From IMG/VR virus record IMGVR_UViG_2684623059_000004: DNA of 37,308 bases; one strand, written 5' to 3'. The translations under genes and the position numbers were made by a program. The stretch comes from a virus. Lineage: Duplodnaviria > Heunggongvirae > Uroviricota > Caudoviricetes. The stretch's first letter is position 1; each line of letters begins with the position of its first letter. Below the pieces are notes generated by a model. The model saw only the letters and a list, made by a program, of their open reading frames with translations, had not been told where the DNA came from and made no database searches. Of this stretch, positions 27,911 through 28,171 are shown one piece after another.

Positions 27911-27979
27911 TTTATGAAAATATCACTTCAACTTTCTGTTTTCCAGAAGTATTTTGCCTATTTTACGTGATAGCGCGCG

Positions 27980-27998
27980 CTCGTATCCCCGCCACGCC
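27980..27998 (-). other. cos-like cohesive-end site
   Basis: minus strand reads GGCGTGGCGGGGATACGAG followed by CGCGCGCT; first 13 nt and the GCGCGCT run match the P2/186 cos ends as I recall them. Confidence 0.5.
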
Positions 27999-28040
27999 TG
28001 CCCGCTTTATGTAGTGGTTTTCATGCACCTGCATGATCTA

Positions 28041-28068
28041 CGCAAAAGCCCGCCAGAACTGGCGGGCC
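28041..28068 (-). terminator. rho-independent terminator downstream of the lipoprotein gene
   Basis: 9-bp GC stem gcccgccag / ctggcgggc with 2-nt loop, followed on the minus strand by UUUU. Confidence 0.65.
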
Positions 28069-28171
28069 TTAACACAAAAGATCCTCAAACGATCATGCGA
28101 TCTCATGCAGCATAGACATGCGCGTTTATGCAGAATGTGCAAAATCGTAACATACTCAGTAAGCGTGAAAC

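Follow-up and report, generated by a model that had tools for sequence, protein, structure and literature searches.

A P2/186-family cos site, predicted by sequence comparison, between a retron Ec67/Eco2 module and a lipoprotein gene in a Fels-2/186-like prophage

The window analysed here, a 37,308-nucleotide stretch recorded in IMG/VR as IMGVR_UViG_2684623059_000004, is a P2/186-like prophage lying in reverse of the 186 map, and its interval 27973..28123 is, judged by its sequence, a cos site of the P2/186 family (Peduoviridae) with predicted nick positions. The gene order P, Q, cargo, cos, accessory genes and gpA is that of 186, P2 and Fels-2. Taken as a whole, the region very probably represents the cos of a Fels-2/186-like (Peduoviridae) prophage that is apparently intact, flanked on one side by a cargo slot with a retron and on the other by a cargo slot with a lipoprotein gene (Table 1).

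In the explanation proposed here, the terminase (gpP and gpM) would bind the GCATG-repeat-rich right-end part of a conserved cos island and would make staggered nicks, leaving a 19-nt 5' overhang. Between cos and the portal gene Q, the slot would hold a retron Ec67/Eco2 module that is complete in itself and reads away from cos. In the right-end slot, the lipoprotein gene would be the last of a DinI/Tum-like operon, probably under LexA control, whose transcription the terminator hairpin of the island itself would stop. The presence of a retron beside cos would then reflect modular cargo exchange at a known hotspot and not a link between packaging and expression. The arrangement of a retron adjacent to cos is already published (1996), as is the hotspot (2022). 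The locus illustrates, to the nucleotide, how cargo modules are swapped around cos. For annotation it gives the origin of the virion map, the retron promoter region and the module boundaries 27973 and 28123.

Table 1. Features of the cos region and of the packaging genes (positions in the window; strand + or -, with a point where none applies)
Feature	Positions	Strand	Basis
Predicted 19-nt cohesive end (cosN), GGCGTGGCGGGGATACGAG	27980..27998	-	matches to 186, P2, Fels-2, SEN8, BL21
Conserved cos core	27972..28028	-	ungapped identity to 186/P2/P4/SEN8; counterpart of 55-bp P2/P4 core
Full conserved cos island, ~150 bp	27973..28123	-	conservation across viral contigs, pairwise breakpoints
Retron Ec67-family RT-Toprim fusion, 586 aa, type I-C	25981..27741	-	NCBIfam, PADLOC, Pfam
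Ec67/Eco2 msr-msd non-coding RNA	27780..27910	-	fold, a1/a2 repeats, CAGA motif
Candidate retron promoter	27917..27945	-	own scan; conservation in GF4-3 retron
Hairpin between convergent Q and RT genes	25949..25975	.	read directly; Q stop 25939, RT stop 25981
Intrinsic-terminator-like hairpin	28044..28070	-	fold energy, stem and tail conservation
Lipoprotein gene, 243-aa ORF	28172..28903	-	lipobox, phrog_1353, 98.8% identity to Fels-2 STM2726
DinI/Tum-like gene	28963..29268	-	Pfam DinI; 98.7% identity to Fels-2 DinI
LexA-box-like palindrome, CTGTTTATATTTACAG	29439..29454	.	sole CTGT-N8-ACAG match in window
Terminase large subunit (P2 gpP homologue)	23148..24914	+	Pfam Terminase_6N, Terminase_6C, Terminase_5; 97% to Fels-2 P
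Terminase small subunit (P2 gpM homologue)	20443..21093	-	PHROG 74; 95% to Fels-2 M
Portal protein (P2 Q / 186 W homologue)	24911..25939	+	Pfam Phage_portal; 89% to Fels-2 Q

The cos site and its conserved island

Joined right and left ends of 186, P2, P4 and SEN8 were aligned to the minus strand of the window; in the records of 186, P2 and PSP3 the first 19 bases are annotated as the cohesive end. A single alignment register is common to 186, P2, P4, SEN8 and the window, and it is in step with the annotated cohesive ends. Divided at the borders of the 19 nucleotides, the joined ends of 186 read ...CATAAAGTGGGCA, GGCGTGGCGGGGAAAGCAT and TGCGCGCC, those of P2 read ...CGTGAAGCGGGCG, GGCGAGGCGGGGAAAGCAC and TGCGCGCT, and the minus strand of the window reads ...CATAAAGCGGGCA, GGCGTGGCGGGGATACGAG and CGCGCGCT, the last of these occupying 27979..27972 directly after GGCGTGGCGGGGATACGAG (27998..27980). 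Over the ungapped 57-bp block 28028..27972 the identity is 44/57 to 186, 44/57 to P2, 43/57 to P4 and 55/57 to SEN8, and the runner-up site for this core reaches 30-31/57 when the whole window is searched on either strand. The initial annotation had pointed to a resemblance of 27998..27980 to the P2/186 cohesive-end region and had proposed alignment to the P2 and 186 cos sequences as its check; the alignment, run here, places both phages in register and upholds the resemblance. The 55-bp P2/P4 core to which the block corresponds is credited, in passages of PMC5694545 and PMC9594776, to Ziermann & Calendar 1990.

Within the cohesive end, the 19-mer of the window agrees with the annotated end of 186 at 15/19 positions and with those of P2 and P4 at 14/19 each, and it is 19/19 identical in Fels-2, SEN8 and the Ec86 locus of BL21. 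A 19-nt sequence with GGCGNGGCGGGGA at its start, as sought in the cohesive-end test, is present in the window. The cos sites of P2, 186, PSP3 and P4 and that of the window are alike in GGCG(T/A)GGCGGGGA at the 5' end of the 19-nt cohesive end and in the flanking AAAACC...AAGCGGGC(A/G) and (T/C)GCGCGC blocks, which lie in register. They differ at positions 14-19, where the window has the Fels-2-type TACGAG, whereas the biochemically mapped ends of P2, 186 and PSP3 have AAGCAT or AAGCAC. Among the records compared, the ATACGAG variant of the 19-mer is annotated as cos only with the qualifier 'putative'; the SEN8 record begins at the 19-mer and has its positions 1..19 annotated as 'putative cos site'. 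Viral contigs were also scanned for ends at the 19-mer, and because the matches are mostly prophage-derived with cos internal, these contigs are uninformative on virion ends. From the alignment we infer terminase nicks at 27998/27999 on the minus strand and at 27979/27980 on the plus strand. That the likeness to cos arose by chance in a GC-rich stretch, a reading to which the four to five of 19 bases differing from 186 and P2 might lend themselves, has negligible probability and is ruled out by the core match of 44/57 against a background maximum of 31/57, the shared register and BLAST homology with E-values down to 1e-100 against Fels-2-type phages, its location, with the gpA-side genes to one side and Q to the other, also being exactly right.

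The extent of the conserved sequence was delimited with a collection of viral contigs, which was scanned for the 26-mer made up of the 19-mer and CGCGCGC; the matches were anchored in register, and the frequency of the commonest base was taken at each position over 110 distinct segments with full flanks. Relative to the cut, this frequency stays at 0.8-1.0 between -125 and +26 (28123..27973), so that the island takes in 26 bp towards the left end and about 125 bp towards the right end; just outside, on either side, the frequency drops to about 0.35. Beside the invariant 26-mer, the left-end flanks fall into 72 distinct clusters and the right-end flanks into 50, and the Ec67 junction is found in just 3 of the 113 contigs bearing the 26-mer. 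The sharp drop in conservation together with the diversity of the flanks indicates that cos is an island, delimited to about 150 bp, with a cargo slot on each side. By BLAST, homology to Fels-2 and to Klebsiella and Salmonella P2-like phages sets in at 27961-27972 and extends rightward, and the retron side gave no match to these same phages. Pairwise comparison placed three breakpoints, at about 25901-25930 (the end of Q), at 27961-27973 and at 28121/28122.

The right-end part of the island is where the density of TGCAT/ATGCA peaks window-wide. These motifs belong to GCATG repeats: five GCATG/CATGC repeats lie at 28019-28123 with conservation of at least 0.9 over more than 100 contigs, and TGCAT occurs four times in each of P2, 186 and P4 within the corresponding 130 nt. 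These right-end repeats may be binding sites for the terminase, putatively for its small subunit. Among the contigs scanned, the metagenomic viral contig L078 carries the cos 26-mer twice in inverted orientation, at 3440-3465(-) and 6704-6729(+), about 3.2 kb apart, which may reflect a chimeric assembly or adjacent elements.

The right-end flank and the integrity of the prophage

The strong terminator that the initial annotation had set just beyond cos corresponds to a hairpin inside the island, with a stem of 28048-28055 and 28060-28067 and, on the minus-strand RNA, a run of four U at 28047-28044; the hairpin 28048..28067 with its U-run has a folding energy of -23.6 kcal/mol (z = -4.2). It is kept in nearly all viral contigs whatever gene lies upstream. 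Across these contigs the stem and the CTTTT tail are conserved and the loop is variable (AACT, TTCT, GAAT and others), and a kept stem and tail with a free loop is the pattern expected of an RNA terminator. No convincing compensatory pairs were found in the stem among the viral contigs, the changes being mostly single mismatches or wobbles. As a terminator the hairpin matches the consensus only weakly, and the built-in promoter and terminator scan did not call it at 28044-28070 because its T-run of 4 T is under the scan threshold; near cos the scan called only a weak plus-strand hairpin at 28002-28017. The predicted terminator fits a role in which it would end the DinI-lipoprotein operon and would insulate cos and the left slot.

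The same hairpin could instead be mainly a structure of the packaging signal, a palindrome bound by protein. Its place inside the conserved island regardless of the upstream gene agrees with such a role, as does the CGCCAG..CTGGCG palindrome that 186 has at the same distance from the end, which is without a T-run, the annotated 186 terminator t95b lying further out. Against it stand the conservation of the CTTTT tail with the stem and the freedom of the loop, and P2 is without a palindrome at this position. The packaging role taken as the main one is therefore unlikely, and the two roles are in any case compatible with each other. As a predicted terminator, the hairpin has the lipoprotein gene and its operon directly upstream.

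The lipoprotein gene proposed for the far side of cos is a reasonable designation, since a lipobox, MKINNVALPISLAVILTG followed by C (LTGC), comes after Met19 of the open reading frame (read directly against the pattern [LVI][ASTVI][GAS]C), and the alignment to phrog_1353 (PHROG 1353) begins at residue 19. The true start of the gene is probably Met19, at 28849. The product gave no match in Pfam, NCBIfam or PADLOC. Orf97 of 186, which is also of 243 aa and occupies the same position, was considered as its homologue and rejected (BLASTP E = 4.5), leaving it a positional analogue only.

Upstream of the lipoprotein gene, on the minus strand, are the DinI/Tum-like gene and a 62-aa open reading frame (orf62). 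Between gpA and this orf62-DinI-lipoprotein operon, at the position of p95 in 186, lies the LexA-box-like palindrome. With one CTGT-N8-ACAG match against 0.54 expected by chance per window, the site is not significant alone, and it is its position and not its count that makes it suggestive. In the 186 record LexA represses tum expression, and terminators of the p95 transcript are annotated downstream of tum. The operon is probably LexA-controlled, and the site suggests a Tum-type SOS induction of the prophage. Beyond the DinI/Tum-like gene come gpA, a Dam methylase, CII/Apl/CI and, at the right edge of the window, the integrase.

The cos homologue could be genuine and nevertheless a relic, in a prophage that can no longer be induced or packaged and that forms no cohesive end; defects are frequent in P2-like prophages, the truncated gpA of BL21 being an instance, and Int and CI have diverged from those of Fels-2 (54% and 38% identity). 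Against this, every structural, lysis, replication and regulatory gene of Fels-2 has an undisrupted, full-length counterpart in the window, and the cos island is 97-99% identical to the islands of phages in the phage collection. A relic is thus rather improbable, somewhat more so than a mainly packaging role for the hairpin. The prophage is apparently intact by gene content, completeness of this kind not being proof of inducibility.

The retron module and its expression

The slot between cos and Q, of which the portal gene is the boundary, holds a retron of the Ec67 family. Its RT-Toprim fusion scores 706 bits against NCBIfam NF038237 (cut-off 450) and 721 bits against PADLOC RT-Toprim_I-C, with a match to Pfam RVT_1, and its length is that published for the Ec67 RT, 586 aa (PMC6868368). 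The msr-msd region folds at -59.3 kcal/mol (z = -4.5), with a 13-bp stem formed by a1 (27909..27897) and a2 (27792..27780). GGCAGA follows directly after a1, and the priming G is predicted in CAGA near 27896; in Ec67 the priming G sits in a CAGA motif (PMC6868368). An E-value scan of 25500-29500 with Rfam found no retron or other RNA family, the only match being a chance lncRNA hit (E = 0.23). In Eco2, defence proceeds from decay of msDNA, triggered by phage DenB, to cleavage of tRNA by the TOPRIM domain (PMC12916289).

A diverged retron of the same family, in E. coli GF4-3, has 73% nucleotide identity and joins an identical cos island at the same nucleotide after CGCGCGCT (segment L014, 2430-4600). 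One a1/a2 pair that is U.G in the window is U-A in GF4-3. The candidate promoter of the retron consists of a -35 element TGGAAA (27945..27940), a 17-bp spacer, TG at -15/-14 and a -10 element TATTTT (27922..27917), with transcription predicted to start near 27910, where the a1 arm begins. It is a weak match to consensus and was not called by the built-in scan; the CTGGAAA, TG and TAnTTT elements are kept in the GF4-3 retron and neighbouring bases vary. As a side observation, the GF4-3 retron is usable for covariation analysis of the Eco2 non-coding RNA and its promoter.

At the other end of the module, the hairpin between the convergent Q and RT genes lies within the cargo, homology to relatives without the retron having ended at 25901-25930, and is followed on the minus strand by GATTTTT. 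It probably terminates the retron transcript, and it is common to the ends of the retron and of the portal gene Q. With a promoter candidate, msr-msd, RT-Toprim and a predicted terminator, the cargo at about 25930-27972 looks self-contained.

By the convention for P2 and 186, the left end begins with the 5' overhang. Since the left end so defined corresponds to the minus strand of the window, no module precedes the retron at that end, and transcription of the retron runs inward. The initial annotation had likewise placed the retron first after the left cohesive end, with a1 about 70 bp away; no module lies between cos and the msr-msd, a1 starts 71 bp from the 19-mer and transcription runs away from cos. 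That annotation had also put the promoter region at the genome terminus, abutting it, and had proposed that retron expression may differ between prophage and infecting DNA. The promoter candidate is indeed between cos and msr; it does not abut the terminus, being wholly in the cargo, 35-66 bp inside the duplex end.

Because the promoter candidate lies within the cargo at this distance from the duplex end, cleavage at cos would leave it in place. After injection, the cohesive ends of P2-family DNA join again, so that the linear state is brief. A difference in retron expression between prophage and linear DNA is therefore unlikely. Its sole structural route would be read-through past the hairpin from the upstream operon, which has the same orientation; the chance that this route is in use is slim.

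A dependence of retron expression on the state of cos, by such read-through or by terminase or the free end acting on the promoter, would make the prophage differ from linear or cleaved DNA. The common minus-strand orientation of operon, hairpin, cos and retron allows it, as do the LexA-box-like site at 29439-29454, a terminator tail of only 4 U and the short distance of the promoter candidate from the duplex end. These points have to be set against the location of that candidate in the cargo and its conservation with the retron rather than with cos, against the retention of the hairpin and its T-run in over 100 contexts, as would suit an effective insulator, against the location beyond the nick of the conserved part of cos, which terminase presumably binds, and against the brevity of the linear stage. 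In addition, Retron-Eco2 has been expressed from its 'native promoter' on plasmids with no cos context (PMC12405507). This dependence is accordingly quite improbable, more so than a relic cos. Marginally less probable again is its most specific form, in which the hairpin would be the built-in insulator of the island, leaky read-through from the LexA operon would tie Ec67, in the prophage or circle, to the SOS response, and cleavage of cos or the linear state would break that tie. Were it true, the packaging cycle would alter the level of the phage's own anti-phage retron. Expression from a promoter inside the cargo, indifferent to the state of cos, is the preferred reading.

Relatives, precedents and other features of the prophage

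The relatives of the prophage show the same island with different neighbours. The Salmonella prophage Fels-2 (NC_010463) is colinear with the window in gene order, and its cos island and lipoprotein-DinI region are 98.7% identical; its cos-Q slot, in contrast, holds an unrelated 565-aa hypothetical gene (segment L001, 1247-2944) where the window has the retron. Besides the divergence of Int and CI given above, the window differs from Fels-2 in having, between V and S, an additional gene for an FRG-domain protein. Further genomes pair the right flank of the window with a HIRAN-domain cargo where the retron would be; E. coli EC361 has this right flank and carries a HIRAN-domain protein and a hypothetical protein in the cos-Q slot (segment L009, 2706-4357), and in SEN8 this slot holds a hypothetical protein and a putative HNH endonuclease (segment L006, 128-2142).

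The Ec67 retron occurs together with cos in 15 complete E. coli genomes, with 98.6-99.5% identity over 25900..28121, and the homology of these genomes to the window ends at 28121. In E. coli Z1323, the only one of the 15 inspected for its flank, DinI comes directly after the island with no lipoprotein gene between them. To the left of the breakpoint at 28121/28122 the window is 99.6% identical to the Ec67 prophage of Z1323 (25000..28121), and to the right it is 98.7-99.7% identical to Fels-2 and EC361. Since the left is shared with Ec67 prophages and the right with the Fels-2 type, the window is a mosaic of known modules.

The Ec67 element is that of Hsu et al. 1990. Its location in a 186-related prophage beside cos is attributed to Dodd & Egan 1996 (Virology 219:115) in the passages of PMC6868368 and PMC5694545 that cite it, 1996 being also the year in which both Ec67 and Ec86 were placed in print between cos and the terminator of the packaging genes. 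As far as those passages describe the prophage of Dodd & Egan, it has in common with the window the 586-aa RT-Toprim, a retron that takes the place of the DNA separating cos from the end of the packaging/portal operon, a Dam methylase in the early region and a 561-aa permease at the left flank. The window carries the Fels-2-type lipoprotein gene, whereas the homology of the Ec67 genomes stops at 28121. The Ec86 (Eco1) locus of E. coli B / BL21 is a parallel with a retron of another type: after an identical 19-mer and CGCGCGC, and at the same cargo junction, the order is Ec86 effector, msr-msd, RT and then the portal gene, the cargo again reading away from cos. It differs from the window in having a St85-family RT with a separate effector, and in the defective state of its prophage.

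The cosL-Q position is called a hotspot in a passage of PMC5694545 that cites Dodd & Egan 1996. In P2-like phages, Rousset et al. 2022 described an anti-phage hotspot that adjoins cos and is bounded by gpA and gpQ (PMC9122126), and a 2026 NAR follow-up also places variable anti-phage cargo next to cos in P2-like phages (PMC13586616). The window shows no difference in kind from the cos-proximal hotspot of Rousset et al.; added here are the nucleotide-level boundaries, 27973 and 28123, of a Fels-2-type cos.

Several other features of the prophage were noted. The Dam methylase that adjoins gpA is of the D12 class (31959-32876, minus strand), and the annotation of the corresponding Fels-2 gene notes a similarity to 'retron EC67 DNA adenine methylase'. 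The FRG-domain protein, of 311 aa (16245-17180, plus strand), lies between baseplate V and tail-completion S, where Fels-2 has no gene; its match in PADLOC is to the candidate defence family PDC-S15 (E = 8.5e-32), and its gene probably marks a second cargo or defence slot. The segment 10146-11600 contains a DNA invertase (Resolvase and HTH_7; 85% to the Fels-2 invertase) beside oppositely oriented open reading frames for a tail-fibre C-terminal part and assembly protein, and it resembles the invertible host-range segments of Fels-2, Mu and P1. A 561-aa Asp-Al_Ex/TrkA_C permease (936-2621, plus strand), which lies beyond the prophage's ogr end, is probably host flank, so the attR boundary should fall near 2650-2850.
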